A stretch of DNA of 64,000 nucleotides from an uncultured Actinomycetes bacterium (GTDB lineage Bacteria > Actinomycetota > Thermoleophilia > UBA2241). The position numbers and the translations under genes were made by a program. The DNA lies in contig CAVPVX010000004.1 of assembly GCA_963709345.1 (NCBI GenBank), forward strand, positions 200,914-264,913, read 5' to 3'. Below are positions 389-17,841 of the stretch, piece after piece (within the stretch, counting starts at the first letter, position 1; the number at the start of each line of letters is the position of its first letter). The notes beneath the pieces were generated by a model. It ran no database searches. It worked only from the letters and a program-made list of their open reading frames with translations, and had not been told where the DNA came from.

Positions 389-712
389 GTGCAGACCATC
401 ACCGCCGACTTGCTCCCTGTGGCCGACAACCCTCACGGCGTCGATGTGCGACATCTCCACACCAGCCCCCATGTGGTGGTCTCGCAGATCACTCTGGAGC
501 CGGGTGAGGCCGTGAAGCCACACAAAGCGCCGGTCGACGCCTTCTTCTACGTCCTCGAGGGCTCGCCGACGATCGAGATCGAGGGAGAGACCGTCGTGGC
601 GCCGGCCGGGATGCTGGTCCCCAGCGCGGCCCGGCATCTGCACGCGATCCGCAACCAGGCTGACGCCCGCGCGCGCATCCTGCTCGTGAAGACGCCGAAC
701 CCGAAGCCGTGA
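389..712 (+). CDS. cupin domain protein (about 107 aa)
   Basis: C-terminal part of ORF 230..712 reads VDVRHLHTSPHVVVSQITLEPGEAVKPHKAPVDAFFYVLEG...LHAIRN, a typical cupin beta-barrel signature. I chose the in-frame GTG at 389 because GGAG sits about 5 nt upstream; the region upstream of 389 in this frame is low-complexity. Confidence 0.55.
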   Translation: MQTITADLLPVADNPHGVDVRHLHTSPHVVVSQITLEPGEAVKPHKAPVDAFFYVLEGSPTIEIEGETVVAPAGMLVPSAARHLHAIRNQADARARILLVKTPNPKP

Positions 713-731: not shown

Positions 732-992
732 CTACAGGCGCACGGCCACGAGCGAGAGCCCCAGCTCCTCTTCGGTCTCGCGCAGCCGCCCGAGCTGCTC
801 GTCGTCGGGCTCCGCCGGCGCTGCCTGCAGTTGCGGGCCGAGCTCCTCCATCATCTTCTGGAGTCGCTCCTCCCTCTTGGGGTCGAGCGATCGGCAGGAG
901 AAGGCCACGATGGTCAGACCGAGATCGGCCTCCAGCGCCTTGATCCTCTCGAGCTGATCGTCCGGGATGCTTCTCGCGATGTCGCACAGCAT
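732..992 (-). CDS. small hypothetical protein (86 aa), paralog 1 of a 3-copy family: MLC N-terminus, two helix-strand repeats ending ...LGLSLVAVRL
   Basis: The C-terminal 86 codons of the otherwise junk 512-aa ORF 732..2270 form a clean non-low-complexity protein MLCDIARSIPDDQLERIKALEADLGLTIVAFSC...DEQLGRLRETEEELGLSLVAVRL. Its ATG is preceded by a strong RBS (AAGGAGGA + 5 nt). Two paralogs elsewhere in the window (15903..16100 and the C-terminus of 14468..14893) support that it is real. Confidence 0.55.
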   Translation of the reverse strand: MLCDIARSIPDDQLERIKALEADLGLTIVAFSCRSLDPKREERLQKMMEELGPQLQAAPAEPDDEQLGRLRETEEELGLSLVAVRL

Positions 993-1075
993 GTGGATCC
1001 TCCTTGAGTCCGCCAGGGCGTAGTGTACCCAAGGTCCGGCGATACTGAAGGCGGCGCGCCGTCTCGCTCCTCCGG

Positions 1076-2344
1076 TCAGGCGACGGGCATGTCGGCGGAC
1101 GCCTCCTCGGGGGTATCCAAGATGACCTGTTCGTCGCGTGTTCGCCGCGCGATCGCGGCGAACAGGGCGAGGGCGGCGATGCTGGAGGTGGCGATCACGA
1201 TCGCCATCGGCAGGCCGCCGACGCCGCCGCCGATTCCGACGAGTGGTGTCGCGAGGGCGCCGAGTCCCAGGCGGAGCGTGCCGAAGTAGGCTGACGCCGA
1301 GCCGGCAACCTCGGGATGCAGCGAGAGCGCCAGAGCGGTCGAGTCGGGGAACACCACCCCGAGGCTCGCGACCAGAAGGAAGAGCGGGATCGCCAGGGCC
1401 ACGATGCCGAGGCCGCCGATGAGCGTCACGACCAGGACTGCCGTCCCCGACAGGCTGCCGCCGATGAGGCCCGCCGTGAGGAGCTGCCGTGGGGAGAAGC
1501 GAGCGAGCAGACGGTGGTTCGCCTGGCTCGCGATCAGCATGCCGACCGCGTTGATGGCGAACAGCACGCTGAACTTGACCGGCGAGGCGCCGTAAAGATC
1601 TTGGTAGACGAACGACGAGCCCGCCAGGTAGGCGAAGAAGGCCATGAAGGCGAGGGCGCTGGTGACGGCGTAGCCCATGAAGCCGGGATCGCGGGACAGC
1701 ATCGCCATGGTGCGAAGGGTGGGTCCCGGTCCCGTCGCGGAGCGACGCTCCCGGGGCAGGCTTTCGTCGAGGCCGAAGGTGACACTCGCGACCAGGGCGA
1801 TGCCGATACCGGTCAGCACGACGAAGATGCCGCGCCACGAGGTGACGCGGAGAAGCTGGGCGCCGACGAGCGGAGCCACGATCGGCGCCATGCCGCTCAC
1901 GAGGGCGAGTCGTGAGAGCAGGCGTGCCGCTTGCCGCCCGCGCGCGTAGTCGGTGACGACCGCGTTGGCGATCACGATGCCGGAGGCGCCGGCGAACCCT
2001 TGGATGAAGCGGACGCCGATCAGCACCTCGACCGACGGCGTGAGGGCGCACGCCAGGGCCGTGGCGGCGAACACGCCGAGGCCGATGATCAGGGGGAGTC
2101 TCCGGCCGTAGGCGTCGCTCAGCGGTCCCGCAAGCAGCTGACCGAGCGCGAGGCCGGCGAGAAAGGTGGTGACCGTGAGCGCGATCGCCTGCGTCGTCGC
2201 GCCGAGGTCGCTCGCCACCGTGGGAAGCGCGGGCAGATAGAGGTCGGTTGCAAACGGGCCGATGGTGCACAGGGCGCCGAGGATGACGATGAGAAGGGTC
2301 AGCCGCCGCGGGCTGAAGTCGCTGAGTCGGGAAGCATGATCCAC
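1076..2344 (-). CDS. MFS transporter, Bcr/CflA-type drug-efflux-like (422 aa, 12 TM)
   Basis: The 422-aa ORF has MFS motifs (GPLSDAYGRR-like loop between TM2 and TM3) and an alternating hydrophobic helix pattern, starting at a GTG. Confidence 0.85.
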   Translation of the reverse strand: MDHASRLSDFSPRRLTLLIVILGALCTIGPFATDLYLPALPTVASDLGATTQAIALTVTTFLAGLALGQLLAGPLSDAYGRRLPLIIGLGVFAATALACALTPSVEVLIGVRFIQGFAGASGIVIANAVVTDYARGRQAARLLSRLALVSGMAPIVAPLVGAQLLRVTSWRGIFVVLTGIGIALVASVTFGLDESLPRERRSATGPGPTLRTMAMLSRDPGFMGYAVTSALAFMAFFAYLAGSSFVYQDLYGASPVKFSVLFAINAVGMLIASQANHRLLARFSPRQLLTAGLIGGSLSGTAVLVVTLIGGLGIVALAIPLFLLVASLGVVFPDSTALALSLHPEVAGSASAYFGTLRLGLGALATPLVGIGGGVGGLPMAIVIATSSIAALALFAAIARRTRDEQVILDTPEEASADMPVA

Positions 2345-2518
2345 GCCCGGCAGACTACTCTGCCTCCTGTGTCGCCGCTACCTCGCCGCGGCCGTTGTAC
2401 CGTGAGGCGGGCGTCGCGAAGAGGTAGAGTCGGAGGCGCCGCTCCGGGAGAGGGCGGCGACGGAGGGCCGGGAGCGGGGTGGCGCGCGGCCGTGGCCCCG
2501 AGCGACGGAGGTGAAGCG
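2345..2518. promoter_or_regulatory. divergent intergenic promoter region between the MFS gene (-) and the glycosyltransferase gene (+)
   Basis: A 174-bp non-coding gap lies between divergent starts. GGAGGTG sits 8 nt before the GT start at 2519. Confidence 0.3.
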
Positions 2519-3652
2519 GTGCGCATACTCTACGGAGTGGCCGGTGAGGGCATGGGTCACGCGACGCGTTCGCACGCCTTTCTCGCCGACATCGTCGGCG
2601 ATCACGAGGTCCTGATCGTCGCATCCGGGCGCGCCTACGACTACCTCGGGCAGCATTTTCCCCAGGTCCGCGAGATCCTCGGGTTCTCGCTCGCCTACGA
2701 GGACAACGCCATCCGCCGCTGGGAGACGGTCGCCCAGAACCTGCGCGGCGCCGTGAGCGGGTGGCCGGCGCAGGTGCGCAGCTTCTACGAGGTGGCCCGC
2801 GACTTCGATCCGGACGTCGTCGTCAGCGACTTCGAGTCGTTCGTCCTCACCGTCGCCCGACGCGAGCGCGTGCCGGCGATCAGCGTCGACAACATCATGA
2901 TGCTGGACCGTTGCCGCCACGACGAGGGCATCATCGGCGGCGACACCCTGGACTTCGAGCTTGCGCGCCAGATCGCGCGGACGAAGGCCGCGGGCCTGCA
3001 CCACGCCATCGTGCCGACCTTCTTTCGGCCCCCACTGCGGCGCAAGGCGACCACGCTGGTGGCGCCTGTGCTCAGGGACGCGGTGCTCGCCGCCGTGGCG
3101 GAGCGGGGCGAGCACATCGTGGTGTACCAGACGGCCGCGGGCAGCGAGAGCCTTGTGAAGGCACTTCACGAGACGGGGCTGCCCTGCCGGCTCTACGGCG
3201 TGCGTCGCGACCTCGACGACGATCTTGTCGACGGCGAACTCGTGTACCGACCGTTCAGCGAGCCGGGCTTTCTGCAGGACCTGCGTACGGCTCGCGGCGT
3301 CATCGCCGGCGGCGGGTTCTCGCTGCTGTCGGAGTGCGTGTACCTGCGCAAGCCGGCGCTGTCCATTCCCGTCACCGGCCAGTTCGAGCAGACGCTCAAC
3401 GCGCGCTACCTCGAGCGGCTCGGGTACGGGGAGTACGCGGAGGCGCCGACGCCGCTGGCGATCGGCGCCTTTCTCGAGCGCCTGCCCCAGCACGAGCAGG
3501 CGCTTGCCGGCTATCGGCAGGACGGCAACAGCGAGGCGCTCGCCGCCCTTCGCGAGCAACTCGCGCTGATCGCCCTCGAGCACACACACCGTCGACGCCG
3601 CGGCCCACAGGCTTCCGCGCCCCTTGACGGCTCGCCGGGGGCGTCGGCATGA
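2519..3652 (+). CDS. glycosyltransferase, GT1 family (MGT/UDP-glycosyltransferase-like, GT28 C-terminal domain)
   Basis: The real protein begins VRILYGVAGEGMGHATRS (GTG 2519, RBS GGAGG 8 nt upstream). It has the N-terminal G-rich loop GxGxGH and a C-terminal nucleotide-sugar binding region (GGGFSLLSE...PALSIP...QFEQTLNA) typical of GT-B enzymes. The upstream 190 codons of ORF 1931..3652 are Arg/Gly junk. Confidence 0.75.
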   Translation: MRILYGVAGEGMGHATRSHAFLADIVGDHEVLIVASGRAYDYLGQHFPQVREILGFSLAYEDNAIRRWETVAQNLRGAVSGWPAQVRSFYEVARDFDPDVVVSDFESFVLTVARRERVPAISVDNIMMLDRCRHDEGIIGGDTLDFELARQIARTKAAGLHHAIVPTFFRPPLRRKATTLVAPVLRDAVLAAVAERGEHIVVYQTAAGSESLVKALHETGLPCRLYGVRRDLDDDLVDGELVYRPFSEPGFLQDLRTARGVIAGGGFSLLSECVYLRKPALSIPVTGQFEQTLNARYLERLGYGEYAEAPTPLAIGAFLERLPQHEQALAGYRQDGNSEALAALREQLALIALEHTHRRRRGPQASAPLDGSPGASA

Positions 3653-3686
3653 GGCGCGCCGACGCCATGCCGCTTGAGGGAGTAGG

Positions 3687-4385
3687 ATGACGCTCGCCGT
3701 GGCCGTGCCGCTCCTCTGCGTCCTCGCCGTCGTCATGGCTGCCGCCGAGATCGAGATCGAGGGCCCGTACGGGTGGGCGGAGAGGCTTCCCACGCCCTAC
3801 CGTGTGAGCGGCCCCTTGGCGCGGCTCTTCGGTCTCCTCCTCGGCGGCAAGCCGCTCACCGGCTACAACCTGTTGCTGTTCGCGGCGACGCTCGTCGCCT
3901 TCCACCTGCCGTTCGCCTTTGGCGCACCGTGGACGGCGGCGAGCGAGCTCGCGGTGCTTGCCGCCTGGATCGCCTGGAGCGCCGTCTGGGACTTCCTCTG
4001 GTTTCTCCTCAACCCGGCCTACGGCTGGCGTCGCTTCCGGGCGGGCAGCGTGTGGTGGCACAGCCGATGGCTCTGGCGGCTGCCACTGGACTACTGGGTG
4101 GCCGTCATCGCGTCGCTGGTCCTGGCGCTGGCGGCGCAACTTGTCGCCGAGGGCACGCCGGGTGGGGCGGACAGTGCCGGATCCTCCGGTCCCGGCCCTC
4201 TCGCGGCCCAAGCGCTGCTCATCGTCGCCTTCGCCGTCCTCGCCGCCGCCGTCGGCCTGCTCTCGCCGTTCTACCGGAGGCTCCACGCACACACGCATGC
4301 GCCGGCGTTCGACGAGAGGAGCCGGGTGCCCATCACTCCTCCGCCGGGCGAGGCTCGGCCCCAAGACGGCGACGAGGACGGATGA
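3687..4385 (+). CDS. integral membrane protein of unknown function (232 aa, Trp-rich helices)
   Basis: It has 4-5 hydrophobic helices and aromatic-rich loops (WDFLWFLLNPAYGWRRF). It lies immediately downstream of the GT gene on the same strand, so it is possibly a GT partner. An RBS-like GGGAGTAGG precedes the ATG. Confidence 0.55.
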   Translation: MTLAVAVPLLCVLAVVMAAAEIEIEGPYGWAERLPTPYRVSGPLARLFGLLLGGKPLTGYNLLLFAATLVAFHLPFAFGAPWTAASELAVLAAWIAWSAVWDFLWFLLNPAYGWRRFRAGSVWWHSRWLWRLPLDYWVAVIASLVLALAAQLVAEGTPGGADSAGSSGPGPLAAQALLIVAFAVLAAAVGLLSPFYRRLHAHTHAPAFDERSRVPITPPPGEARPQDGDEDG

Positions 4386-4439
4386 CGCCCGGGATCGCGG
4401 CGAATGGCCGCGCCGCTGTCCTCACAGCCGCGCCGCCGG

Positions 4440-4913
4440 TCAGGCCTTCGCGCTCAGGCCTTCGAGCTTCTCATGTAGACGGCGCTGGTGCTTCTCGGTC
4501 TGCTCGCGCAGCGTGTCCACCACTTCGGTGACCTCCGGCGGGTCCCCGTCGTACACGACGAACACCTGCGACTCGATCAGCGAGTCCTCGAGCTTCAGCG
4601 CCACGCGGAATGCCTCCTGCAACGGGAAGCCGGCGGCCGGCGTGATCTGCGCGAGATTCCTCAGCCGCGCCGTGTCCGCCTGCACGTCGGCCAGATCGTA
4701 CTCGCGGTTGTCGACGAAGGCGGCCAGGTCGCGGGTCCGGTCGGGCAACGAGCGCAACAGCGCACCGTGACCGTGCTCGTCGCGTGCGAGGGAGCTCCAC
4801 AGGTCGCCGACCTCGGGGAACTCCTTGGCGTAGGCGGAATAGAGAGCGCTCATCGCCTCTTCGTGCTCCGCCAGCGCAAGTACGACGTCGCGGGGATCAT
4901 CTGTCGCTGCCAT
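4440..4913 (-). CDS. ferritin-like domain protein (about 157 aa)
   Basis: The real part of ORF 4440..5186 begins MAATDDPRDVV... (RBS GGAGG before the ATG at 4913). It has helical E/H-rich motifs (DEHGHGALL, LKLEDSLIESQ) consistent with a ferritin-like/rubrerythrin-like four-helix bundle. Confidence 0.5.
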   Translation of the reverse strand: MAATDDPRDVVLALAEHEEAMSALYSAYAKEFPEVGDLWSSLARDEHGHGALLRSLPDRTRDLAAFVDNREYDLADVQADTARLRNLAQITPAAGFPLQEAFRVALKLEDSLIESQVFVVYDGDPPEVTEVVDTLREQTEKHQRRLHEKLEGLSAKA

Positions 4914-5079
4914 CGGGGTACCTCCATGGGCCGGTTGTGATGGGTTCTGAGGGGCCTCTTCCCGCGTCACACAGCGCTCAATCGCGCGACGTCTGCAGGC
5001 CGCGATGCGGTCCGCACGACCGTTCCGCGGAGTGGTTCGGGCTCTTGACACGCTCCGCCGCGGCCTGTAGGCACCATCT

Positions 5080-6321
5080 GTGAACGCACCTTCGGACCCG
5101 GCCCCAGTCAGCGGCGCGGGCCGCGGCATGAGCCGTGGCCTCATCCTGCTCTTCGCCGTCGCGACCGGGCAGGCAGTGGCGAGCAACTACCTGGCGCAGC
5201 CGTTGCTGGACACGATTCGCGACCGCTACGGGGTCACGGCGGCGGTCGCGGGACTCATCGTCACGACCGCCCAGATCGGCTACGCGGCCGGCCTCATCCT
5301 GTTGCTGCCGCTGGGCGACCTGTTCGAGCGCCGCCGGCTGATTGTCACGCTGGCGGCGATAACTGTCGCCGGCCTCGCGGCCGCGGCGGCCGCGCCGACG
5401 ATCGGCTTCTTCATCGCCGCCGTCGGCGTCGTCGGCCTGACGTCCGTGATGGCGCAGGTCCTCGTTCCCTTCGCCGCGACGCTGTCGTCCGAGGCCGAGC
5501 GCGGCCGCGTGGTGGGCACCGTCATGAGCGGCCTGCTCCTCGGCATCCTGCTGGCGCGCACCTTCTCCGGCCTCGTGGCCGAGGCCGCCGGCTGGCGCGC
5601 CGTCTACGTTCTTGCGGCCGTCCTCATGGCCGCTCAGGCCGTCGTCCTCTATGCCAAGCTGCCGAGCTACCACGAGTCGGCCGGTCTCTCGTACCCGAAG
5701 CTGCTCGCCTCGGTAGCGGCGATCGCGCGCGCCGAGCCGATCCTCCGCCGGCGCTCGCTGTACGGCGCGTTCTCATTCGCCGGTTTCAGCATCCTGTGGA
5801 CGACCCTCGCCTTCCTGCTCGCCGGTCCGCGCTACGGCTACGGCGACGGCATCATCGGACTCTTCGGTCTCGTGGGCGCGGCCGGGGCGCTCACCGCGAC
5901 CGTCGTCGGCCGCTTCACGGACCGCGGCTGGTCGCGTGGCCTCACCGGCGTCTCGGCTGCGCTCCTCCTCCTCGGCTTCGTGTTGATCTGGCTCGGCGAA
6001 CGTTCGCTGCCGGCGTTGCTGGCCGGGATCGTCATACTGGACGTGGGCGCCAATGGCATCCACATCACCAACCAGAGTGAGATCTACCGGCTGCGGCCGC
6101 AGGCACGCAGCCGGATCAATGCGTTCTACATGACGTCGTGCTTCGTGGGCGCGGCCGCCGGCTCGGCGATGGCCGCTCTCGTCTACGAACGCTGGGGATG
6201 GACCGGCTCCTGTGTGCTCGGCATCGTGGTCGCCCTGGCTGCGGTCGGCCGCTGGGCGACCGACCGCGAGCGGCCGCTCTCCGAGCGGGATCCGGTCTGC
6301 GAGGCGCCGCCACCGGCGTGA
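5080..6321 (+). CDS. MFS transporter (about 400 aa)
   Basis: 12 predicted TM helices and an MFS-like loop (GDLFERRRL). The start may be the internal M at 5128 (MSRGLILLF). Confidence 0.8.
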   Translation: MNAPSDPAPVSGAGRGMSRGLILLFAVATGQAVASNYLAQPLLDTIRDRYGVTAAVAGLIVTTAQIGYAAGLILLLPLGDLFERRRLIVTLAAITVAGLAAAAAAPTIGFFIAAVGVVGLTSVMAQVLVPFAATLSSEAERGRVVGTVMSGLLLGILLARTFSGLVAEAAGWRAVYVLAAVLMAAQAVVLYAKLPSYHESAGLSYPKLLASVAAIARAEPILRRRSLYGAFSFAGFSILWTTLAFLLAGPRYGYGDGIIGLFGLVGAAGALTATVVGRFTDRGWSRGLTGVSAALLLLGFVLIWLGERSLPALLAGIVILDVGANGIHITNQSEIYRLRPQARSRINAFYMTSCFVGAAAGSAMAALVYERWGWTGSCVLGIVVALAAVGRWATDRERPLSERDPVCEAPPPA

Positions 6322-6379
6322 CGGCCGCCGAGGCCGCTCGCCGCCACCGTCGTCAGTCACGAGAGGGAAGGGACCAGGT

Positions 6380-7174
6380 ATGAGATTCGTCGACGCGCAT
6401 CTGCACACCGACATGATCGAGGACGTCCAGCTGCAGAAGCTCGTGATGATGGGCATGGAGGCGGCGGTCATCCCGAGTCCGCACATGTTCGTCGGCACGC
6501 ATGACGCGGACACCGTGCTGCTCCTCTGGGAGCGCTTCCTCACGATGGAGGCGACTACCGCGACAACGCTGGGCTACGAGGCCTACACATCGATCTCCGT
6601 GCCGTTCTTCGGGGTCGGCCGCGCCGACGCCGAGCGCTGCCTCGAGCGCATGCCGGAGTTCCTGGCCAACGACCGCGTCGTCGCCATGGGCGAGATCGGG
6701 TTGGACACCGACACCGAGTTCGAGGAGTGGCTGTTCCGCGAGCATCTGCGCGTCGCCAAGGAGCACGACCTGCCGGTGATCCTGCACACGCCCATCCGAC
6801 TGGCGCCGCAGGGGCAGACCGTCACCCCCCGCGTGTTCGAGATCATCAAGGAAGAGGGTTACCCGGTGGAGCGCTGCGTGTTCGACCACGCCGGTGAGGA
6901 GACCATGGAGTTCCGCATGAGCACCGGCGGCATGGTCGGTCTCAGCATCTGCTGGGACAAGATGCCGCCGGAGGCCGCCGCGCGCATCGTCATCGACCAC
7001 CCCGAGTGGCGCGAGCGCCTGATGATCAACTCCGAGCTCGGCGGCATGGGCAACGACTACTTCATGGTCCCGCGCGTACAACTGGCGATGAAGCTCTTCG
7101 GCCTGGACAAGGAGACGATCGACCAGGTCTGCTTCCAGACGCCGCGCGACTTCTTCTCGCTGCCGGTCGGCTGA
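6380..7174 (+). CDS. TatD-family metal-dependent hydrolase (amidohydrolase fold)
   Basis: MRFVDAHLHTD... the DAHxH N-terminal metal-binding motif, GEIGLD, ILHTP and FDHAG motifs characteristic of TatD/YcfH-type hydrolases. The ATG at 6380 is preceded by GAGAGGGAAGGGACCAGGT. Confidence 0.7.
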   Translation: MRFVDAHLHTDMIEDVQLQKLVMMGMEAAVIPSPHMFVGTHDADTVLLLWERFLTMEATTATTLGYEAYTSISVPFFGVGRADAERCLERMPEFLANDRVVAMGEIGLDTDTEFEEWLFREHLRVAKEHDLPVILHTPIRLAPQGQTVTPRVFEIIKEEGYPVERCVFDHAGEETMEFRMSTGGMVGLSICWDKMPPEAAARIVIDHPEWRERLMINSELGGMGNDYFMVPRVQLAMKLFGLDKETIDQVCFQTPRDFFSLPVG

Positions 7175-7536
7175 ACGTATCCCGCACGGGAGCGAGCTTC
7201 CCGGTGAGCCCCCGCACCCGGCGCCGTCTTCGGGTGCGACATAGAAGGACGCCGCCGCCGGCAGCTGACGGTACGTTCTGGCGTCAGGTCGCCTTCCGGC
7301 TTTCGCTCGCGCGTGCTCGACCGGTGGGCCGTCGGCGACAGCGTTCAGGGCGATGAGCATCCGCGCCCCGTGAGGGGCCGCGGGCGTGCTGAGTGGCGTC
7401 ACTGTCGTGGGGCGGCGTCACGTCCGCCGACCAGCCGCGGCGCCCCTTTTTACGAAGTGTTCACACTCTCCGCAAGACCGTCGAACAACTCCGGGGACAC
7501 TGAGGTCGCCACCCGGATCGGAGAGGATGTCTCCAT

Positions 7537-7674
7537 ATGCTTCGTTACTCCGTCATCGCGTGTGCCGCTCTCGCTGCTCTCGCCCCCCTCGCGCGAGTCG
7601 TGTCCCGCGTCCCGAGCAGGGAAGCCATGCCGCCTCGTCTCCCCGGCAGGGGCCGGCGCGGGGAACGCCCGTGA
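7537..7674 (+). CDS. possible small secreted peptide (45 aa)
   Basis: An unlisted frame-1 ORF MLRYSVIACAALAALAPLARVVSRVPSREAMPPRLPGRGRRGERP has a signal-peptide-like N-terminus. It is preceded by GGAGAGG and an unusually AT-rich stretch (CCCCTTTTTACGAAGTGTTCACACTCTCC) in a 570-bp intergenic region. It is speculative. Confidence 0.15.
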   Translation: MLRYSVIACAALAALAPLARVVSRVPSREAMPPRLPGRGRRGERP

Positions 7675-7746
7675 CGATCCTCGAGGACGCACGAGGCGGC
7701 AAGGGCGGCGCGGGACCGGATCGACCGCTCGCTGTGTCCGCCCGCC

Positions 7747-8769: not shown

Positions 8770-8810
8770 GCTCGCTGGACCCGGCCCGCCTCGGAAGCCG
8801 CTCTGGCGAT

Positions 8811-10130
8811 TCAGATCGAGTCGGCCGGCGAGTCGAGGGGAAGGCGGATGGAGAATGTCGCTCCGCCGTTCGCGCGGCTGCTTGCTTCGACGTGCCCACC
8901 CATGGTCTCCACCAACTCCCGCACGAGCGCGAGGCCGAGGCCCGTGCCGACCGGCCGCGTCGCCTTGTAGCGATCGTACAGACGGAAGCGGTCGAAGGCG
9001 TGCTCGAGGTCGTCGGCGTCGAGCCCGGGCCCCGAGTCGACGACGCTGATCGAGCCCGGCTGCACGGCGACGTGTACGGCGCCGCCGGCCGGACTCAGGC
9101 GGAGCGCGTTCTCGACCAGGTTCGTCACGCACTGGACGATCCGGTCCGGGTCGCCCCGGGCCGGCGACTCCGGCGATGCGACCAGTTCGACCCGCGTCTC
9201 CAGCCTGTCCGCCGCGGCCTCGCAGCGCCTGACGGCTTCCGCCGACAGCTCGGCGAGGTCGACGGGCTCCGAGCGCACGGTGAAGCGCTCCTGGCCGAGC
9301 CGCGCCAGGTCCAGCAGGTCTTCGACGAGACGTTCGAGGCGAGCGCTCTCGGTCAGGATGAACTCGCTCGCCATCTCGGGCGCGACTACGCCTTCCGTCT
9401 GGCCGAGGGCGAATCCGCGGATCGCCGCGAGCGGCGTCCTGAGTTCGTGGGTCACCGACAGGAGAAAGGCCCTTTCCGCCAGGCGTACCCGCTCCAGCTC
9501 ACGTGACATGTGGTTGAAGCTCTCGGTGAGCGAGCGCAACTCGCGCGGGCCACCGACCTCGATCGGGAGCGGTGTCGATCCCTCGGCGACCTGCCGGCTC
9601 GCTCCGGCGACGCGGGAGACAGGTCGGGTGACGGCGCGCGCGACGATGAGGGATGCGGCCGCCGCGCAGCCGACGGCCAGCAACGCGCCGAGCAGAAGAC
9701 GCCCGGTCCACTGCCGCCAGTCGACGATGGGCGTCGTGTAGGGACGCTCGAGGACGAAGACCTCCGAGCCCCGGCGGACCGCCGCGAACATCTCGCGGCC
9801 GCGCCGGTCTTGTCTGCCGGCGACGGCTCCGGCGGCCTCCAGCTCGGCTACGGCCTCCGGCGGCAGATGGGCGGCAGCGGAGTCGGCCGGGAAGATCGAG
9901 AGGGCGCGATCGACGCCGGCCACAGCGTCCTGGATGGCCACCCGCTGCTCGCGCGGCTGCTTCTCGATGATGGCCGAGAGCAGGTTGGTGTGGCGCGCGA
10001 GTGCGGCGAGATCGGCGTGCTCTATGCTCGCCTGGAGGACCACGGCCCCCAGGATCAGGAAGGCGACGAGCGGGACGGCCGTGGCGAGAAACACGGCCAG
10101 CCACATCCGGGTCCACAGTCGGTCCAGCAT
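8811..10130 (-). CDS. two-component sensor histidine kinase (TM-HAMP-HisKA-HATPase)
   Basis: N-terminal TM helix, periplasmic segment, second TM, HAMP-like region, H-box SVTHELRTPLAAIRGF, and N/G boxes (NLVENALRLSP, DSGPGL, GTGLGLALV). Confidence 0.85.
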   Translation of the reverse strand: MLDRLWTRMWLAVFLATAVPLVAFLILGAVVLQASIEHADLAALARHTNLLSAIIEKQPREQRVAIQDAVAGVDRALSIFPADSAAAHLPPEAVAELEAAGAVAGRQDRRGREMFAAVRRGSEVFVLERPYTTPIVDWRQWTGRLLLGALLAVGCAAAASLIVARAVTRPVSRVAGASRQVAEGSTPLPIEVGGPRELRSLTESFNHMSRELERVRLAERAFLLSVTHELRTPLAAIRGFALGQTEGVVAPEMASEFILTESARLERLVEDLLDLARLGQERFTVRSEPVDLAELSAEAVRRCEAAADRLETRVELVASPESPARGDPDRIVQCVTNLVENALRLSPAGGAVHVAVQPGSISVVDSGPGLDADDLEHAFDRFRLYDRYKATRPVGTGLGLALVRELVETMGGHVEASSRANGGATFSIRLPLDSPADSI

Positions 10131-10169
10131 GCTCGCTCCCCTCCGGCCGGCGCCGTCGCCGGCGACCGG

Positions 10170-10841
10170 CTAGCCGCGGATCGCCTTGTAGCCGACTCCG
10201 TAGACGGTCTGAATGAGATCGGGACGCTCAAGCTTGCGGCGGACCTGAGCGATGTGCACGTCCACCGTCCTGGTGCCGCCCGGGTAGTCGATGCCCCAGA
10301 GGCGATCGAGGAGCTGCTCGCGCGTGAACACCACGCCGCGATGCGCCACCAGGTGCGTGAGGAGATCGAACTCCTTGGCTGTGAGGTCCACGCAGGAGCC
10401 GTCGACGGTCACCTCACGCGCCTCGCAGTCCACCACGACGCCGGAGAGCGACAGCATCGACCTGCCGGCCGTCGGCCCGCTGCGGCGCAGGACGACTTTG
10501 ACGCGAGCCATGAGCTCGCGCGGTGAGAACGGCTTCGTGACGTAGTCGTCGGCTCCGAGTTCCAGGCCGGCGACGCGGTCGGCCTCATCGGTCCGGGCCG
10601 TCAGGATGATGATGGGGACGGTCGTTCGCGCCTTGATCTCACGACATACATCGAAGCCGTCCATGTCGGGGAGGCCGATGTCGAGGATGACGAGAGCCGT
10701 GGCGCGCCGCTCGAGCTCCGAGAGCCCCTCGGCGCCGCTCCGCGCCCAGACGACGGAGTACTCGTCGTGACGGAGGTACTCTTGCACCAGCGTGCCCATG
10801 CTGGCTTCGTCTTCGATGAGGAGAACGGTCCCACGCATGCC
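10170..10841 (-). CDS. OmpR-family response regulator
   Basis: Start MRGTVLLIEDE. Receiver motifs (DIGLPDMDG, phospho-acceptor D) plus a C-terminal winged-helix (TAKEFDLLTHL...VYGVGYK). It is the operon partner of the HK immediately downstream. Confidence 0.85.
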   Translation of the reverse strand, partial: GMRGTVLLIEDEASMGTLVQEYLRHDEYSVVWARSGAEGLSELERRATALVILDIGLPDMDGFDVCREIKARTTVPIIILTARTDEADRVAGLELGADDYVTKPFSPRELMARVKVVLRRSGPTAGRSMLSLSGVVVDCEAREVTVDGSCVDLTAKEFDLLTHLVAHRGVVFTREQLLDRLWGIDYPGGTRTVDVHIAQVRRKLERPDLIQTVYGVGYKAIRG

Positions 10842-11057
10842 CCTATGATACCCGCCCGTCATCGAGCGGTCCCGGGGCCGTGGCCGACGCGGGATGCGTC
10901 GTCCGCCGGACGCGCCGGACGGCCGCACAGGTAACCTGCCTGCATCCAAGGTCCTGCACCGGGACGCCGTCCGGCCCTCGGTGGTTCGAGGTGCCGGACG
11001 GCGTAAGAGGGCGTGGCCCGCAGGGCTGCGCCGGCGTGGCGCGCCGGCCTCTCGGCG

Positions 11058-11654
11058 TCAGGCGCGGCTCACCAGGTCGTCGCGGCCGTCGGCGACGAAG
11101 TACGCGGCCGTGACCGTGGCGATCGTGAACGGCACCGCGAGGATCGCCAGCGGGCCGTCGGCGACGGCGTTCAGAGCCAGCAGCATGACGGTGAGCGCCA
11201 GGTGCTCCCAGAAGCCGTTGTCGCGGACCAGGTGGTAGCTTGCCGCCATCGCGTCGTAGACGCCCAGGCGCCGATCGACCATGAGCGGGATCACGTACAG
11301 CCAGATCGTCACGAGCAGCACGCCTCCGACGATGGTGAGTGAGGCCAGGCCGATCAGCACGACGAGCACAAGCGCCGCTACCAGGAAGTCCCAGAAGCGG
11401 TCCATGCAGGAGAAGACGTCTCCGATCTCGGCGGTGCGACCGTCGCGGATCCGCCCGGCGACCATGCTGTAGAGGCCGGCCAGCAGCGGGCCCGCGAGGA
11501 TGCCCAGAGTGACGATGGAGAGCAGGCCGGCGATGAGACCGCCGACCAGCAGCGGGACGATGTCGGCGGTGAAGCAGTTCCAGCCGCCTTTGAAGGCGAG
11601 GCCGACATCCAGACGCGGGCGGGCGAGCGCCGGCGTTGCTTCGACTGTAGTCAT
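11058..11654 (-). CDS. polytopic membrane protein of unknown function (198 aa)
   Basis: 4-5 hydrophobic helices with no catalytic motif. It lies upstream of the RR/HK pair on the same strand. Confidence 0.55.
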   Translation of the reverse strand: MTTVEATPALARPRLDVGLAFKGGWNCFTADIVPLLVGGLIAGLLSIVTLGILAGPLLAGLYSMVAGRIRDGRTAEIGDVFSCMDRFWDFLVAALVLVVLIGLASLTIVGGVLLVTIWLYVIPLMVDRRLGVYDAMAASYHLVRDNGFWEHLALTVMLLALNAVADGPLAILAVPFTIATVTAAYFVADGRDDLVSRA

Positions 11655-11826
11655 GGTGGGTTCCTTTCCCCGAGGTTGCGTTGTCCTGAGATGAGACTAC
11701 GGACTCACGCGGCCGGCGTCGTCACCCCCGGGACTGAATCGGGGGTCAACCACAGGGGGAACCCCGCCCTCGCTGCGCACCCCTGCGGAGGGAGGGCGCC
11801 GGCGTTCGCGGGGCAGGGAAGCAAGA

Positions 11827-11863
11827 AAGGCGGCGGGCGGCCGGAAGGGCCGCCCGCCGCCTT
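11827..11863. terminator. GC-rich hairpin (16-bp stem, GGAAG loop) downstream of the transglycosylase gene, copy 1 of a repeated hairpin
   Basis: AAGGCGGCGGGCGGCC-GGAAG-GGCCGCCCGCCGCCTT is a perfect stem. It lies 30 nt past the stop of the minus-strand gene 11895..12654. Its core GCGGGCGGCCGGAAGGGCCGCCCGCC is 25/26 identical to the hairpin at 19489..19525. Confidence 0.5.
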
Positions 11864-11894
11864 GGACAAGTCACGAGGGGGCGCGTCGGCCGGT

Positions 11895-12654
11895 TCAGAA
11901 CGCCATCGAGTAGGTGTGGGTCCAGATGCTGGGGCCCATGCCTCTGCCGATCGCCAGGGCGGCGAGGCGGATCTGCGCCCAGCCGTCGTAGATGCTGGTG
12001 CCGCGCCATGGGTTCCAGCTCGCCGACCACTCGCGGGTCATGAATTGGAAGAGGCCGTGGTACGGGCCGCTGACGACCCGGCGTTGCCCGGTCGACTCGA
12101 GCATCATGAGGCGGTAGAGGCCGGCCGCGCTGACGCCGTACTTGCGCGCGGCGATCTCGATCAGCGGCCGCCACTGGCCGCGGCTGTTCCACTTCTGAAT
12201 CTGGACGCGCAGGCGGACGCGCTTCGCCAGTCGCTTCACCTTGTCGCTCCAGCGTTTGGTCATCGCGCGCAGCTTCACGACACGCGCCTGCAGTGCTGCG
12301 ACTTCCTCGTCGCTGACGACGCCGTCGGCCAGCAGCGCGGCCGCGAGCGCCTGATCCATGCCGGGGGGGATCAGTCAGAGTCGGCGCGGCCGGGTCGAGC
12401 GGCGCGGCGTCCGGGTCCAGCGGGGTGGCGGTGATAGTGGAGGGGTCCGTCGCGGCGCGGAGCTCACGGGCTCCCGCCAGGTTCACGACGGCGAGGCGCT
12501 GACGCTGACGGGCCCGCTGCCTCTTCTCCTTGGCTTGGCGCAGCTGCTGCTTGAGCTGCTTGATGGGCGGTTGCTCTGCGGAGGCCGGCGACGCGATGAT
12601 CGCGGTGGCCAGGAGGGCGAGGACGATGAGGATCCCGAGGTGTCTGAGACGCAC
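11895..12654 (-). CDS. secreted lytic-transglycosylase-like protein (signal peptide + coiled-coil + SLT-like domain), interrupted by a 1-nt frameshift in a G7/C7 homopolymer
   Basis: The N-terminal part (GTG 12654, RBS GGAAAGG) is VRLRHLGILIVLALLATAIIASPASA-EQPPIKQLKQQLRQAKEKRQ...TLTDPP, in the frame of junk ORF 11746..12990. The C-terminal 154 aa (ORF 11895..12359) carry a transglycosylase-like core GLYRLMMLESTGQRRVVSGPYHGLFQF...W. The two frames join if the G run at 12363..12369 is 6 rather than 7 nt (...TLTDPPGMDQALAA...). Confidence 0.55.
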
Positions 12655-13084
12655 GGTGACCTTTCCACGTGGTGTCCCGCTGGGGCAGTGGCCTTGCCTG
12701 TGCCCGGCGGGCGATCCGCGCCCGGGCGCGCGCCCGCCACACGGCATGTCCGTCAGATGGAAGAGGGGAGACGAATCTGCTGGGGGTGGGGCGCGCGGGG
12801 CGCCTCTTCTGCGTAGATTCGTGCTCCATTGAACCCTGTGGACGGCGCGTATGCAACCCGATGCGCCTGCATCGTGGCCGGGCCGGCGCTTGCGCCGGCG
12901 ATGAGCACCCCGGAAACGTCGTCGACCACGCATCGTCCTCGCAGCGTCCGATCCTGCGCGCCGCCCTGTGGGTCGTGAGGTATGGTTCAATCAGATGATC
13001 GCCGCGGACGCCGGCGTGAGACCGCTCTCGTCACGCGATGCCGGCCGCGCCGGAGCCGGAAATCACGCGGACAGGGGGAGAATC

Positions 13085-14356
13085 GTGAACCCACATGGGC
13101 CACTCTGTGCGCGGCGCCTCGCCGTCGTGCTCATGCTGCTGCTGGTGGCCGTGGCGCTGGGCGTCTCGCTGCTGACCACGGGGAACGCGCACGCCGCCGA
13201 CCTGACGTCCTGGTTCGCGATCCAGGACAGCCGCGTGTGGCTCCGCTCCTCACGGGTCATCGTGGGCGACCAGGGTTGGTCGCCGTACTTCCGTCCCGGT
13301 ATCGTCGTGTGGGACGGGGGGAGCATCGTCGGCGGTCACGGAGTGGATCCCGGCGACGACTACGCCGCACAGACCCTCGCACTCGTCCCACGGGTCTGCC
13401 GGAGCTACGCGTCTGTTACCGCCGGAGCCGACATCGCCGACATGGTCGTCGAGGCTCCAGCCGAGGTCGATGCGCGGTATCTCGCGGGTGCCGACGGCAA
13501 CGTGTGCGTCGTGCACGCCGGCGGCAGCGACCTCAAGAGCGGACGCGACCCCGAGGTCATCTTCGATCAGATCCGCACCTACTGTGCCGACCGGCGCGAC
13601 GCAGGGTTCGCCGTGGTCGTCGTCACGATCCTGCCACGGACCGACGCCCCCACCTTCGAGGCGGCCCGCGCGATCCTGAACGGCTTGTTGCGCGCGCACT
13701 GGCCGGAGTTCGCCGACGGACTTGCGGATGTCGCCGCCGACCCGCGCATCGGCGACATCTACGACAACCTCGACCAGCGGTACTACTGCGCCGACGGCAA
13801 ACACCCCAACGCCTCCGGGTACGCGGTGATGGCATCGGTGACCGCCCCGGTCCTCATGGACCTCCCGTGGCTCTCGCAGGCCGTGGACATGCGTCTGCGC
13901 AACGCCGGGGACGAGTGGGGGGAGTGGCGCGCCTATGCGGCGCTCACCACGTGGTGGCTCGCGCCGGGCGACGGCGCCAGGAGAGTGGAGGCGGAGTACC
14001 GGAGGGGAGTGGAGGATCCGGTGGCCGTTGGAGACGACGTCAACGTCGACACCGTGCGCCCGACGACGCGGGCGCTGCGCTCCGTCGCCGTGCGTCGCGG
14101 CGGCAAAGCCGTACTCGCATACCGCGTGCTCGACGCCGACCCGCACGGATCCTACGCCACGGTGGTGCTTCGGATCCTGCGCGGCGACAAGGTCGTCACG
14201 TCGATGGTCCGGCACCGCCGGGCCATCGGACGCCGTCTCCAGGTGTCGTTCACGTGCACCCTGCCCGCGGGCTCGTATCGCTGGCAGGTCCTCGCCCGCG
14301 ACACCGCGGGCAACCGCCAGAGCGTGGCGGGCAGCGCCCGGTTCGTCGTGCGCTGA
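13085..14356 (+). CDS. secreted SGNH/GDSL-family hydrolase with a C-terminal beta-sandwich (Ig-like) domain
   Basis: GTG 13085 with AGGGGGAG 7 nt upstream. Signal peptide RRLAVVLMLLLVAVALGVSLLTTGNAHA. SGNH blocks (VVHAGGSDLKSG; DGKHPNASGY) and a C-terminal FlgD-Ig-like segment (RVLDADPHGSYATVV...TAGNRQSV). Confidence 0.7.
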   Translation: MNPHGPLCARRLAVVLMLLLVAVALGVSLLTTGNAHAADLTSWFAIQDSRVWLRSSRVIVGDQGWSPYFRPGIVVWDGGSIVGGHGVDPGDDYAAQTLALVPRVCRSYASVTAGADIADMVVEAPAEVDARYLAGADGNVCVVHAGGSDLKSGRDPEVIFDQIRTYCADRRDAGFAVVVVTILPRTDAPTFEAARAILNGLLRAHWPEFADGLADVAADPRIGDIYDNLDQRYYCADGKHPNASGYAVMASVTAPVLMDLPWLSQAVDMRLRNAGDEWGEWRAYAALTTWWLAPGDGARRVEAEYRRGVEDPVAVGDDVNVDTVRPTTRALRSVAVRRGGKAVLAYRVLDADPHGSYATVVLRILRGDKVVTSMVRHRRAIGRRLQVSFTCTLPAGSYRWQVLARDTAGNRQSVAGSARFVVR

Positions 14357-14467
14357 CGGCGCGGGTCCACCCGACGTCGCCGAGCCAGTGTGGCCCGCAA
14401 CACTGGAGCTTTTCATGTCGGAGTCGAGAGGCGTCCTGTGGGACGGTGAGAGCCAACCGTCCCGTCC

Positions 14468-14893
14468 GTGGCTGCGGGCTTCGCGGTGCTCAGCGGCCGC
14501 GAGTGGGCAAGGTGGACAGGATTCGGGATCGCCGCACTGAGCGTGATCGGCCAGATGCCGTTCGCCCAGGCGTACCCGCTCTGGACACTGCTCATCATCG
14601 CCGTCGACTTCATGGTCGTCTACGGTCTCACCGTCTCCGGCGGCAGGGCTGCAGGGTCGGCGACCTCGACCCGGGAGGAGTGGGAGCGCCACCTTCGTGA
14701 CGTCTCGTCGCGGGAGGAGCGCGCGGCCTGGCGTCTCGTCCACATCGGGACGCTCGAGAAGAACCTTGGTGTGCCCGTGCCCACCCTCGCCGGTCACCAG
14801 GTGGACCCTGCCGCCATCGACGACGCCCAGATCGCGAGGATCAAGGAGCTTGAGAGCAGGCTCGTCGTCTCGCTGGTCGCCGTCAAGGGGTAG
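14468..14893 (+). CDS. fusion-like ORF: DUF7144-type transmembrane segment plus a C-terminal repeat domain of the MLC small-protein family (paralog 3, possibly degenerate)
   Basis: The N-terminus WARWTGFGIAALSVIGQMPFAQAYPLWTLLIIAVDFMVVYGLTV resembles the C-terminal helices of DUF7144 membrane proteins; an intact DUF7144 gene is at 34856..35239. The C-terminus IGTLEKNLGVPVPTLAGHQVDPAAIDDAQIARIKELESRLVVSLVAVKG is about 70% identical to the protein at 15903..16100. The GTG start follows an in-frame TGA at 14447, so the N-terminal half of a DUF7144 gene appears lost. Confidence 0.4.
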   Translation: MAAGFAVLSGREWARWTGFGIAALSVIGQMPFAQAYPLWTLLIIAVDFMVVYGLTVSGGRAAGSATSTREEWERHLRDVSSREERAAWRLVHIGTLEKNLGVPVPTLAGHQVDPAAIDDAQIARIKELESRLVVSLVAVKG

Positions 14894-15078
14894 GAGCTCC
14901 CAGCCCTGCGCGTGCTCCCCGAACGCGTCGAGGACGATGTCGAGCGCCGTGCGAACTACCCCGGGCCGTCGCCGACGTCCTGACGCCGTCCGTCACCCGG
15001 GGTAGCAGGCTGGCCGGCGCACCCGCGTGAGCGTCCGGGGTCACCCCCGTCGTCGTCGAGGGCGCGACGACCCTCTGA

Positions 15079-15727
15079 TCAGCTCGCCGCGCCGTCCTTG
15101 TCGTCGCTCGACGGGAACAGCTTGTCCTGATAGTAGCCGTCGGCCAGGTAGATCGCGGCCAGCGGGTTGTGGCCGAGGACCCTGTCCTTCGCGGCCAGAA
15201 CCGTCACCGGGGCGCTTGAATGCTTGAAGAAGAGGCTGTCGTGCCCGACGCACAGCCCGAGCACGATGTTGAGCTGCGTTCCGGCGCGGGCAAGCGCGTG
15301 CGCTTGGCCGACGGGGTTGCACATGGCCTCGAACGATCCCGGCAGGAGTTTTTCGTCGTCGCCCAGCCCTATGAGGCTCTTGTCGACGGCGCCGTTCTTG
15401 CAGAGCACCGAGTCGACGCTGAAGCCGTTGGCGACGAGCACCCGGCGAAGCACGGCCGCCTCGCTCTGGAGCCCGATGCAGAACGCCAGCCCAAGACTCT
15501 CGAAACCGCAGCGACGGGCGAAGGCCATGGTCTCCTCCACGCGCGTGAGGCGGCAGTAGCCCTCGGCCTCCACCCGAGCTGAGTTGCGGGCCAGCACGAG
15601 ATCGTCCACGCTGTAGGCGTCGAGCGCCGGCGCCGGCGTCCGCGTCTGACGTTGGGCAGTGCGACGGGTACGTCGTCGCACCTTCTTCGTGGCAGGCGAG
15701 TCGCTTGCAGGCGGCACACTCGTACAT
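15079..15727 (-). CDS. DUF1847-family (Cys-rich, putative metal-binding) protein, apparent 1-nt frameshift after the N-terminal Cys motif
   Basis: ORF 15041..15727 starts MYECAACKRLACHEEGATTYPSHCPTSDADAGAGA, the CxxC...C...YP..CPT N-motif. A second frame (ORF 15079..15864) continues ...LDAYSVDDLVLARNSARVEAEGYCRLTRVEETMAFARRCGFESLGLAFCIGL...MCNPVGQA...GLCVGHDSLFFKHSSAPVTVLAAKDRVLGHNP, the DUF1847 core. The junction is inside the GC repeat GACGCCGGCGCCGGCGCT at about 15625..15645. Confidence 0.55.
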
Positions 15728-15902
15728 CGCGCTCCTCCCTTGCCGGGCGGCCCGGCTCTTCTACGGCGCGAGACTCCACGCTCCCTTCCCGATCGTGACT
15801 CTAGCACCCCGTGAAGTCGCGTGGCCTGGTCAACGCTTGGGCACGTACTCGCGCGGGAAGGCACCCTTCGACCTGCGATCTCGCGCGAAGGGAGCTCTTC
15901 TC

Positions 15903-16100
15903 ATGCTGTGCAGTCTCGCAACGAAACTGGATCAAGGACAACTGGACGACATCGGGGCGCTCGAGGCCGAACTCGGTGTGCCCGTCCTCGCGTTCGCCTG
16001 CCACGAGATGGAGCCCGCCGCGATCGATGAGGCGCAGGTCGCCAGGATCGCGGAGCTCGAGAGCCGCCTCGGGGTCTCGCTGGTCGCCGTCCGGGGATAA
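15903..16100 (+). CDS. small hypothetical protein (65 aa), paralog 2 of the MLC small-protein family
   Basis: MLCSLATKLDQGQLDDIGALEAELGVPVLAFACHEMEPAAIDEAQVARIAELESRLGVSLVAVRG, with RBS GAAGGGAG 7 nt upstream of the ATG. It has two internal helix-strand repeats and is clearly paralogous to 732..992 (both start MLC...QL..I.ALEA.LG....AF.C and end LG.SLVAVR). Confidence 0.6.
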   Translation: MLCSLATKLDQGQLDDIGALEAELGVPVLAFACHEMEPAAIDEAQVARIAELESRLGVSLVAVRG

Positions 16101-16182
16101 GTCTCCCGGGCAGCCTCTGTCCATCCCGGTCACCGCCCTCATCACCGGCAGGCGCCCGCGCGCGGGCGCTCCGGCGTCTAGT

Positions 16183-17664: not shown

Positions 17665-17841
17665 GTCGTCCTCGCCTTGATCGGTGATGCGGACAAAGTT
17701 TGTCCGCAATTGGGGGGAAGTTGAAAAGCTACCAAAAGTGCGACGCCCCTACAAGCGTGGCAGGCGTTCGCCGGGCATGCGGCTCACGGGCGCGTGGGCG
17801 ACGGTGGCGCCACGGCCGCGGTCTTCGGCTAGACTCGTAGG

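Follow-up and report, generated by a model that had tools for sequence, protein, structure and literature searches.

Within 16 kb of a 64,000-nucleotide stretch of DNA (the window: contig CAVPVX010000004.1, positions 200,914 to 264,913) from an uncultured bacterium of the Thermoleophilia, there are three segments, here called copies 1, 2 and 3, that resemble each other and could encode very small proteins. The locus raises the question of what these segments are: genes or accidents of base composition, products of a local expansion or of separate lineages, and, if genes, what kind of protein they specify. Copies 1 and 2 are real, intact and expressed-looking genes. By sequence comparison they are members of one uncharacterised family of small soluble proteins, and orthologues of two subfamilies that separated anciently and that each have their own synteny. 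Copy 3 is, on the same type of evidence, probably the remnant of a third lineage left by a rearrangement, and not a functional paralogue.

A hidden Markov model (HMM) built from the homologues, in combination with tblastn, finds copies 1, 2 and 3 (Table 1) as the sole family segments in the 64 kb, at the positions given in an initial annotation of this DNA. Copy 2 matches the family HMM over positions 1-64 with E = 1e-37, copy 1 matches it in two stretches with E = 8e-18, and copy 3 matches it over positions 14-64 only, with E about 4e-20 to 6e-20. The tandem-unit signature of the family is found in the window copies, and the motif that the initial annotation had written for them is correct except for one spacing, since C3 and Q13 are separated by nine residues and not by eight. 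The M-[LF]-C N-terminus and Cys33, which together mark the Cys clade of the family, are present in copies 1 and 2. Copy 3, which had also been credited with the MLC N-terminus and the cysteines, has neither: its N-terminal part is missing and position 33 is occupied by glycine. Nor is there a cysteine after each strand, as had been proposed, but solely after the first (C33). Copies 2 and 3 have a protein identity of 66% over 53 amino acids (aa), close to the earlier estimate of about 70%, and form a 158-nt direct repeat with a DNA identity of about 75-77%, while the protein identity between copies 1 and 2 is 36%. Outside the coding parts, no DNA similarity among the three loci was found. The ribosome-binding sites (RBSs) ascribed to copies 1 and 2 are both in place.

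The G+C content of the window is about 70%. In DNA of this kind an open reading frame (ORF) proves nothing, and a gene caller based on the G+C content of third codon positions (GC3) preferred antisense ORFs over copies 1 and 2; the frames were therefore tested directly. The G+C fractions in the first, second and third codon positions are 0.77, 0.41 and 0.82 for copy 2 and 0.74, 0.38 and 0.90 for copy 1. When copy 2 is aligned with 29 homologous loci of equal length, the column entropies of the three codon positions are 0.57, 0.42 and 0.99. In the N-terminus of the copy-2 type, MLCSLATKL, all nine residues are invariant and the third positions of their codons change synonymously, which means that the constraint is on the protein and not on an RNA or DNA element. 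Purifying selection thus acts on the copy-2 frame. The copy-2 type comprises 41 clusters with 54-94% identity, nearly all of 65 aa, and has 51 loci in GTDB; the copy-1 type comprises more than 223 homologous clusters, nearly all of 86-89 aa and mostly of either 86 or 89 aa. An Rfam scan of the whole window gave no match, and scans for sigma-70 promoters and intrinsic terminators near the copies gave nothing relevant.

Consider now the case where the three copies are no more than ORFs that GC-rich DNA produces by chance, or else recent duplicates of one segment. High-GC DNA does yield many spurious ORFs (an initial clustering of neighbouring genes with all ORFs included was swamped by them), antisense ORFs overlap copies 1 and 2, and the direct repeat formed by copies 2 and 3 is what a duplication would leave. 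However, chance ORFs would not be under purifying selection in the stated frame, and they would not have hundreds of homologues with conserved length across phyla. Duplicates of one segment would not be as far apart as copies 1 and 2, and the closer relative of copy 3 would be copy 2 instead of a gene from another genome. Identical flanking DNA, which had been named as the mark of a local duplication, is not seen, the flanking regions of copies 1, 2 and 3 being unrelated. A recent local duplication is ruled out by these flanks together with the affinity of copy 3 to foreign genes, and the probability that remains for artefact or duplication taken together is negligible.

The breadth of the family appears from a profile search against 1.84 billion representative proteins, clustered at 50% identity, which retrieves 599 proteins at E <= 1e-3, of which 114 reach E <= 1e-10. 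Most of the 599 representatives have 63-66 aa. A group with 86-89 aa (P0073, P0082, P0094) matches copy 1, and relatives of 140-204 aa, which are free of cysteine, contain four or five tandem copies of a unit of about 30 residues. The length of the unit varies from about 22 to 33 residues; it consists of a short strand, a helix and a strand, and has the signature L-x3-Q-x3-[IL]-x2-LE-x2-LG-x2-[LIV][LV]A[FYV]. The members can therefore be ordered by their number of units, with two in proteins of 63-66 aa such as copy 2, three in those of 86-89 aa such as copy 1, and four or five in those of 140-204 aa. That copy 1 has three units follows from its insert of 21 aa, which is conserved among the 86-aa proteins (LDPxREERLxxxMEELGPQLQAEP) and fits the unit as a third, degenerate repeat. 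In the AlphaFold2 model of copy 2, calculated from a 41-sequence alignment with a predicted local distance difference test score (pLDDT) of 83.8, there are helices at residues 11-24 and 43-56 and strands at residues 28-30 and 60-63. The model of a four-unit relative (pLDDT 72) repeats the order of short strand, helix and strand and contains no closed barrel. The helix-strand repeat architecture first noticed in the sequence thus agrees with the models as well as with the multi-unit relatives. The GTDB hosts of the 65-aa type are mainly uncultured Thermoleophilia and other Actinomycetota, and the type occurs also in Desulfobacca, Syntrophobacteraceae, Desulfobacteraceae and Nitrospirae metagenome-assembled genomes (MAGs).

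The initial annotation could not assign the three copies to a known family, and this has been borne out. Searches of Pfam, NCBIfam, PADLOC and PHROGs gave no significant match for the window proteins or for the distant and multi-unit relatives; the one weak signal that recurred was to 16 residues of the LysR HTH (helix-turn-helix). A profile search of all PDB sequences retrieved nothing but TIM-barrel fragments and repeat proteins designed de novo, all with E >= 6e-4, and no individual stretch passed by itself. In a Foldseek search of the PDB nothing was significant, the best E value being 0.56. The source names of the homologues are all 'hypothetical protein' or evidently spurious labels, and no literature was found on this small-protein family, nor on DUF1847, the domain family of a gene beside copy 2. 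By sequence and by predicted fold, the family is of a new kind that fits no described one.

C3 and C33 are invariant in both the 65-aa and the 86-aa subfamily. In a set of 80 diverse representatives of 58-72 aa, aligned at both positions and with mutual identities below 50% though not phylogenetically independent, 51 have both cysteines, 24 have neither and 5 have one only (odds ratio 204, Fisher p = 5e-15). This coupling in the sequences indicates that Cys3 and Cys33 work together, either as a putative disulfide or as joint ligands.

Table 1. Positions in the window of the three family segments and of the features around them
Feature	Position	Strand	Remarks
Cupin gene	389-706	+	Beyond copy 1
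Copy 1	732-992	-	Intact 86-aa gene with three units, MLCDIAR...LGLSLVAVRL; ORF and translation; 86-89 aa subfamily
RBS of copy 1	999-1005	-	AAGGAGG, 6 nt before ATG
MFS_1 transporter gene	1076-2344	-	Pfam MFS_1 E = 1e-43; 83 nt upstream of copy 1, same strand
Glycosyltransferase gene	2519-3535	+	Part of the copy-1 synteny
DUF7144 membrane-protein gene, 3' part	14468-14737	+	First ~62 codons missing; reads in frame into copy 3
Copy 3 (probable remnant)	14738-14893	+	5'-truncated segment, family positions ~14-65; last ~52 codons of ORF 14468-14893
Window-specific segment (copy-3 tail, DUF1847, copy 2)	14738-16182		Not at that position in L063/L064
DUF1847 gene	15079-15727	-	Divergent from copy 2; broken into two frames by an added base near 15626
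Promoter-like motif	15831-15860	+	CAACGCTTG-N15-GGGAAG, 43 nt upstream of the copy-2 ATG
RBS of copy 2	15888-15894	+	AAGGGAG, 8 nt before ATG; AAGGAG kept here across loci
Copy 2	15903-16100	+	Intact 65-aa gene with two units, MLCSLATKL...LGVSLVAVRG; 63-66 aa subfamily

The 65-aa genes have a conserved upstream region. In the Actinomycetota loci, CAACG[GC]TTG is followed after about 15 nt by GGG[AT]A[GC]. The strict form of this promoter-like motif has one match in the window, where none is expected by chance, and a relaxed form is found in 22 loci of about 16 kb each, exactly once per locus; without exception it precedes the small gene by 40-70 nt on the strand of that gene. A -10 element of the GGGTA type together with a -35 element that contains GTT is typical of stress sigma factors of the SigB/SigF type. 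The -10 element GGG[AT]A[GC] of the copy-2 type resembles such elements, and its assignment to them is inferred from this consensus.

The genes around the 65-aa gene come in several arrangements. About 25 loci have NuoF-like and FdhA-like genes, the small gene, a gene for an HMA-like protein of 107 aa, and cooS, which in L065 is followed by a gene with the N-terminal domain of ACS alpha. Nine loci have CobA, a DeoR-type helix-turn-helix (HTH) gene, the small gene and a Fur-family gene; three of the nine also have CbiMQO. In six Desulfobacterota loci a PAS-GerE regulator lies upstream of the small gene, and in one of these six, L073, the gene for a B12-binding protein overlaps the stop codon of the small gene and is translationally coupled to it. 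Rubrerythrin is found near the 65-aa gene in five loci and in the window. Counted by neighbour, the HMA-like 107-aa gene occurs in 25 loci, CooS in 21, the Fur family in nine, CobA in nine and rubrerythrin in six. The 21 loci with CooS within 8 kb, out of about 65, are all from MAGs of Actinomycetota/Thermoleophilia; CooS is found neither in the window nor in the other context groups. The redox and metal setting that was first suggested for the family is therefore recovered in relatives, whose 65-aa genes often lie by CODH/ACS (carbon monoxide dehydrogenase/acetyl-CoA synthase), an FdhA/NuoF-like pair, Fur, CobA or rubrerythrin, but not through the two neighbours on which it had been based. 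DUF1847 adjoins the 65-aa gene in the window, L007 and L066 only, and the POR beta/delta-like gene adjoins it in the window only. A conserved linkage to DUF1847 or to POR, seen in three loci and in one locus respectively, is accordingly rejected.

Some observations on these neighbours may be recorded in their own right. The 107-aa protein between the small gene and cooS is conserved in L007 (1974-2294) and 24 other loci; its similarity to Pfam HMA is sub-threshold (E = 8e-4), it has GMWADHH in place of the GMTCxxC metal site, and a role as a His-based metallochaperone for CODH/ACS is conceivable. Downstream of the small gene and upstream of the p107-cooS unit there is a palindrome of the CRP/FNR type, TGTGACATACTGCACA in L007 (about 1810-1860) and L066 and TGTGACATGTTGCACA in L025, which suggests that a regulator of the CooA/CRP family may control the CODH/ACS operon in these Thermoleophilia. 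The POR-like gene of the window (16183-17709, -) encodes a 508-aa fusion of a 2x[4Fe-4S] ferredoxin and a POR beta-like domain that binds thiamine pyrophosphate (TPP_enzyme_C + Fer4). Its neighbours are copy 2 and an EamA transporter, and no POR alpha or gamma partner adjoins it. Of the loci retrieved, only the window contains the fusion at full length; L063 and L064 contain the 3' end of an orthologue. A rubrerythrin-like ORF (about 18.8-19.4 kb, +) and a gene with a NifU_N domain (19567-20370, -) lie 3-4 kb from copy 2.

From the neighbourhoods one may construct a nickel or cobalt metallochaperone, in which the 65-aa protein would be a functional analogue of CooT or HypC: a dimer that binds one metal ion through the N-terminal Cys and Cys33 and delivers it to CooS/ACS or to a corrinoid pathway. 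The 65-aa gene adjoins the HMA-like gene and cooS-acs in 21-25 loci, lies elsewhere beside CobA, Fur and CbiMQO or is coupled to the B12-binding protein, and the size and N-terminal Cys of its product resemble those of CooT. Yet the link to cooS is limited to one clade, the window has copy 2 but no cooS within its 64 kb, and the small gene has its own promoter-like motif, separate from the p107-cooS unit. Furthermore, the Cys pair is retained in the 86-aa subfamily, whose linked gene is that of an MFS transporter rather than of a metalloenzyme, many members of the family have no cysteine, and there is no similarity to CooT in sequence or fold. A dedicated chaperone is, all in all, an improbable role for the protein.

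Copy 1 has different surroundings. It lies between the cupin and MFS genes, as the initial annotation had it. In six loci (L067-L072), taken from three different clusters of 86-89 aa proteins, the order is a glycosyltransferase gene (-), an MFS gene (+), the small gene, 70-95 nt beyond it and in the same orientation, and then a variable gene, often a cupin. The window has the genes of this order (glycosyltransferase, MFS, copy 1 and cupin), orthologous to those of L067-L072 with 67-90% identity, and by this comparison of gene orders the MFS transporter is a conserved syntenic partner of the 86-aa subfamily. On contig_6072 of another Thermoleophilia MAG (the contig of L031 and L067), a 65-aa and an 89-aa gene lie about 17.6 kb apart on opposite strands; in the window copies 2 and 1, likewise on opposite strands, are 15 kb apart. 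Further along the window, a 248-aa ORF (4440-5186, -) has good coding statistics and no Pfam match at E <= 0.01.

Regulators are also recurrent neighbours, with PAS-GerE in six loci, the DeoR-type HTH in nine, the Fur family in nine and TetR in six to seven. This suggests a transcriptional co-regulator that would modulate the neighbouring regulator, as an anti-repressor for instance, or would itself bind DNA. It agrees with the resemblance of the helix and strand of the unit to the recognition helix and wing of LysR-type HTHs: many members have recurrent weak matches to Pfam HTH_1 (PF00126) at its profile positions 31-47, and in copy 2 residues 47-62 are aligned to positions 32-47. The match spans, however, about 16 of 60 residues and scores 17.9 bits in copy 2 against a gathering score of 26.6, so that copy 2 does not contain a full HTH_1 domain. 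The family is acidic (Glu/Asp-rich), its alignments have no conserved basic surface, the models have no HTH fold, and the adjoining regulator families vary by clade. A function of this type is not to be expected, although it deserves to be kept in mind.

How did copy 3 arise? The N-terminal 58 residues encoded by ORF 14468-14893 match PF23636 (DUF7144) at profile positions 57-114 of 115, with E = 6e-16 and 59 bits against a cut-off of 27. The 141-aa fusion has no orthologue among 5.8 billion proteins, its sole relative being P0192, a full-length DUF7144 protein of 153 aa that stops (...SSREERAA) where the window ORF runs into the family tail. In L063 and L064, on the P0192 contig of a close relative, the DNA is homologous to the window over 14458-14737 and again from 16182/16183 on, the stop of the POR-like gene; about 350 unrelated bp separate the two stretches. 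This break in the homology identifies 14738-16182 as an indel, and the DUF7144 gene has in addition lost 218 bp from its 5' end. Relative to L063/L064 there are three breakpoints (14458, 14738 and 16182), and the segment found in the window only has a length of 1.45 kb. At the junctions of this segment there are no terminal repeats apart from the two gene tails, and a mobile element with terminal repeats is rejected for that reason. L007 shares the DUF1847 and copy-2 pair with 89% DNA identity (window 15005-16108), but there the flanks differ, with an FdhA-like gene on one side of the pair and p107-cooS on the other. The DUF1847 gene that had been placed between copies 2 and 3 is indeed there, but it is frameshifted: alignment to the intact L007 orthologue (Pfam DUF1847 E = 7e-57) puts the extra base in the run GCCGGCGCCGGCGC, and the split is either that of a pseudogene or an indel of the assembly.

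The DNA of copy 3 is 81% identical to the gene in L008/L009, above the 75-77% to copy 2, and copy 3 is without the family invariants L29, A30, F31, C33 and G57. The ratio of non-synonymous to synonymous substitution rates (dN/dS) in its tail lends no support to the remnant reading, since the value of 0.44 does not differ, over as few as 50 codons, from the family baseline with its median of 0.40; the term remnant rests, therefore, on the truncation and the lost invariant residues. A neofunctionalised, membrane-anchored form is a conceivable alternative. A second family copy nearby is present in none of 72 related loci. The multi-copy expansion at a redox cluster that was originally envisaged thus dissolves into two old and separate subfamilies, represented by copies 1 and 2, and a probable remnant.

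Other fusions of the same appearance were noted. In six independent proteins (P0091, P0100, P0111, P0129, P0166 and P0185) a fragment of an unrelated protein is joined to the family from positions ~14-17 onward, as in copy 3; the fragments include the C-terminus of an acyl-CoA dehydrogenase, the N-terminus of Lon, residues 41-88 of an aldehyde dehydrogenase and a central part of a PAS-GerE regulator. The joint in P0111 has the look of a deletion between neighbouring genes, and there may be a recombination hot spot at about codon 15. In three MAG loci (L052, L054, L056) small genes are split by frameshifts.

The small size of the proteins, their cysteines and the presence of several copies in one genome had also called to mind the precursors or carriers of ribosomally synthesized and post-translationally modified peptides (RiPPs), in which a Nif11- or NHLP-like leader would be followed by a modified, Cys-containing core. 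One NCBIfam match to a radical SAM RiPP model points the same way, but it is insignificant (E = 0.037). The window proteins give no match to Nif11 or NHLP models at E <= 10, and ten relatives give none at E <= 1; no other leader model matches either. The proteins are conserved over their full length to the last residue, including the C-terminal LGVSLVAV, so that there is no hypervariable core, and a compact fold is predicted (pLDDT 84). A GG/GA cleavage motif is absent from the three family alignments (A2, A3, A8), and in a Pfam census of neighbours at 50 loci and nine annotated contexts there is no recurring maturase or C39-peptidase ABC exporter. It is hard to reconcile these results with a RiPP, the probability of which is very small.

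The preferred reading, in which the family proteins are switches or adaptors, can be put as follows. The repeat units would form a small alpha/beta scaffold, probably self-associating. In the M-[LF]-C clades, Cys3 and Cys33 would make up a reversible disulfide or an inter-subunit metal or Fe-S site, and the protein would function as a small thiol or metal switch or adaptor. Genes of the 65-aa type would be transcribed from their own stress-type promoter, and their products would act on the anaerobic one-carbon (C1), corrinoid or metal functions that are encoded nearby in relatives (CODH/ACS, CobA, Fur, B12-binding protein); proteins of the 86-aa type would work together with the MFS exporter whose gene theirs always follows. 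Several points weigh against this reading. About one third of the diverse members and all multi-unit members are without the cysteines, and it follows from the latter that the core role of the scaffold is independent of cysteine. His34 is not conserved (14 of 51), and the N-terminus of copy 2 is modelled at a pLDDT of about 60. The sigma-factor assignment depends on a resemblance to consensus sequences. The neighbourhoods vary by clade, the link to CODH/ACS may reflect lineage synteny rather than function, and the function is deduced solely from conservation and neighbourhood. The mechanism in its full form, with self-associating scaffold, Cys pair as thiol or metal switch, stress-type promoter and context-specific partners, is for these reasons doubtful, if quite conceivable. 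The overall account, in which the family identity and the remnant status of copy 3 are joined to a switch or adaptor mechanism, is the best explanation of the locus and is adopted tentatively, its chances being a little short of even.

The significance of the family depends in part on which of these functions applies. Its 599 representatives come from at least three phyla and mostly from uncultured anaerobes, and they have no entry in Pfam, NCBIfam or the PDB. Their unusual features are the variable number of units, the invariant nine-residue N-terminus, the coupled cysteines and the dedicated, conserved promoter-like motif. The 65-aa subfamily often heads CODH/ACS clusters in Thermoleophilia, where anaerobic C1 metabolism is known from genomes alone, and this family of DUF rank could give Wood-Ljungdahl, corrinoid or nickel biology a new small protein with an accessory or regulatory role. 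Should it be merely a structural adaptor, the gain is modest.

It remains to compare the family with known systems. CooT and HypC are small chaperones with an N-terminal Cys that supply nickel or iron to CODH and hydrogenase. CooT, a dimer of 7.1 kDa that binds one Ni per dimer via Cys2 of each monomer, has an all-beta fold of seven strands (PMC6006190). The 65-aa subfamily is like CooT in being a cytoplasmic protein of about 7 kDa whose Cys at the very N-terminus is strictly conserved, and in its frequent occurrence at CODH/ACS loci. The fold of HypC is a beta-barrel. In contrast to both, the family is predicted to have strand-helix-strand twice, the model of copy 2 having two helices and two to three short strands. 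Unlike CooT it has a second, coupled Cys (C33), as well as Cys-free and multi-unit relatives, and membership of the CooT family is not indicated by any Pfam or NCBIfam match. With Nif11 and NHLP leaders the family shares the small size, a helical N-terminal half and several copies per genome, but it has no cleavage motif, variable core or cognate genes for maturation and export. With the winged HTH of LysR-type regulators it shares the local motif I-x2-LE-x2-LG-x2-L-[FV], which resembles the recognition helix and the first wing strand. However, the sub-threshold match of the window proteins covers about 16 of the 60 domain positions, HTH helices 1-2 and an effector domain are missing, there is no structural match, and the unit of the family is tandemly repeated whereas LysR HTHs are not.

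The last comparison concerns TIM barrels, with their beta-alpha units, and repeat proteins designed de novo; a unit of about 30 residues fits both in length. The best sub-significant Pfam matches are Peptidase_M19, AP_endonuc_2 and aldo-keto reductase (AKR), the best sub-significant PDB matches are AKR, Octarellin and designed tandem-repeat proteins, and some JGI names are TIM-barrel-like ('sugar phosphate isomerase/epimerase', 'microsomal dipeptidase-like'). None of these matches is significant; no barrel family is matched significantly by profile or structure, the family models have two strands per unit and not one, they form no closed barrel, and no catalytic residues are conserved. One may nevertheless imagine that the family proteins are free-standing modules of the beta-alpha type, with two to five units, which assemble into closed or extended oligomers and, in the two-unit and three-unit clades, carry at the Cys3/Cys33 pairs of neighbouring subunits a metal or Fe-S switch for anaerobic C1, corrinoid and export functions. 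This is a long shot, but if it were true, the modules would be a living analogue of the 'quarter-barrel/half-barrel' pieces from which repeat and barrel folds have been proposed to originate.

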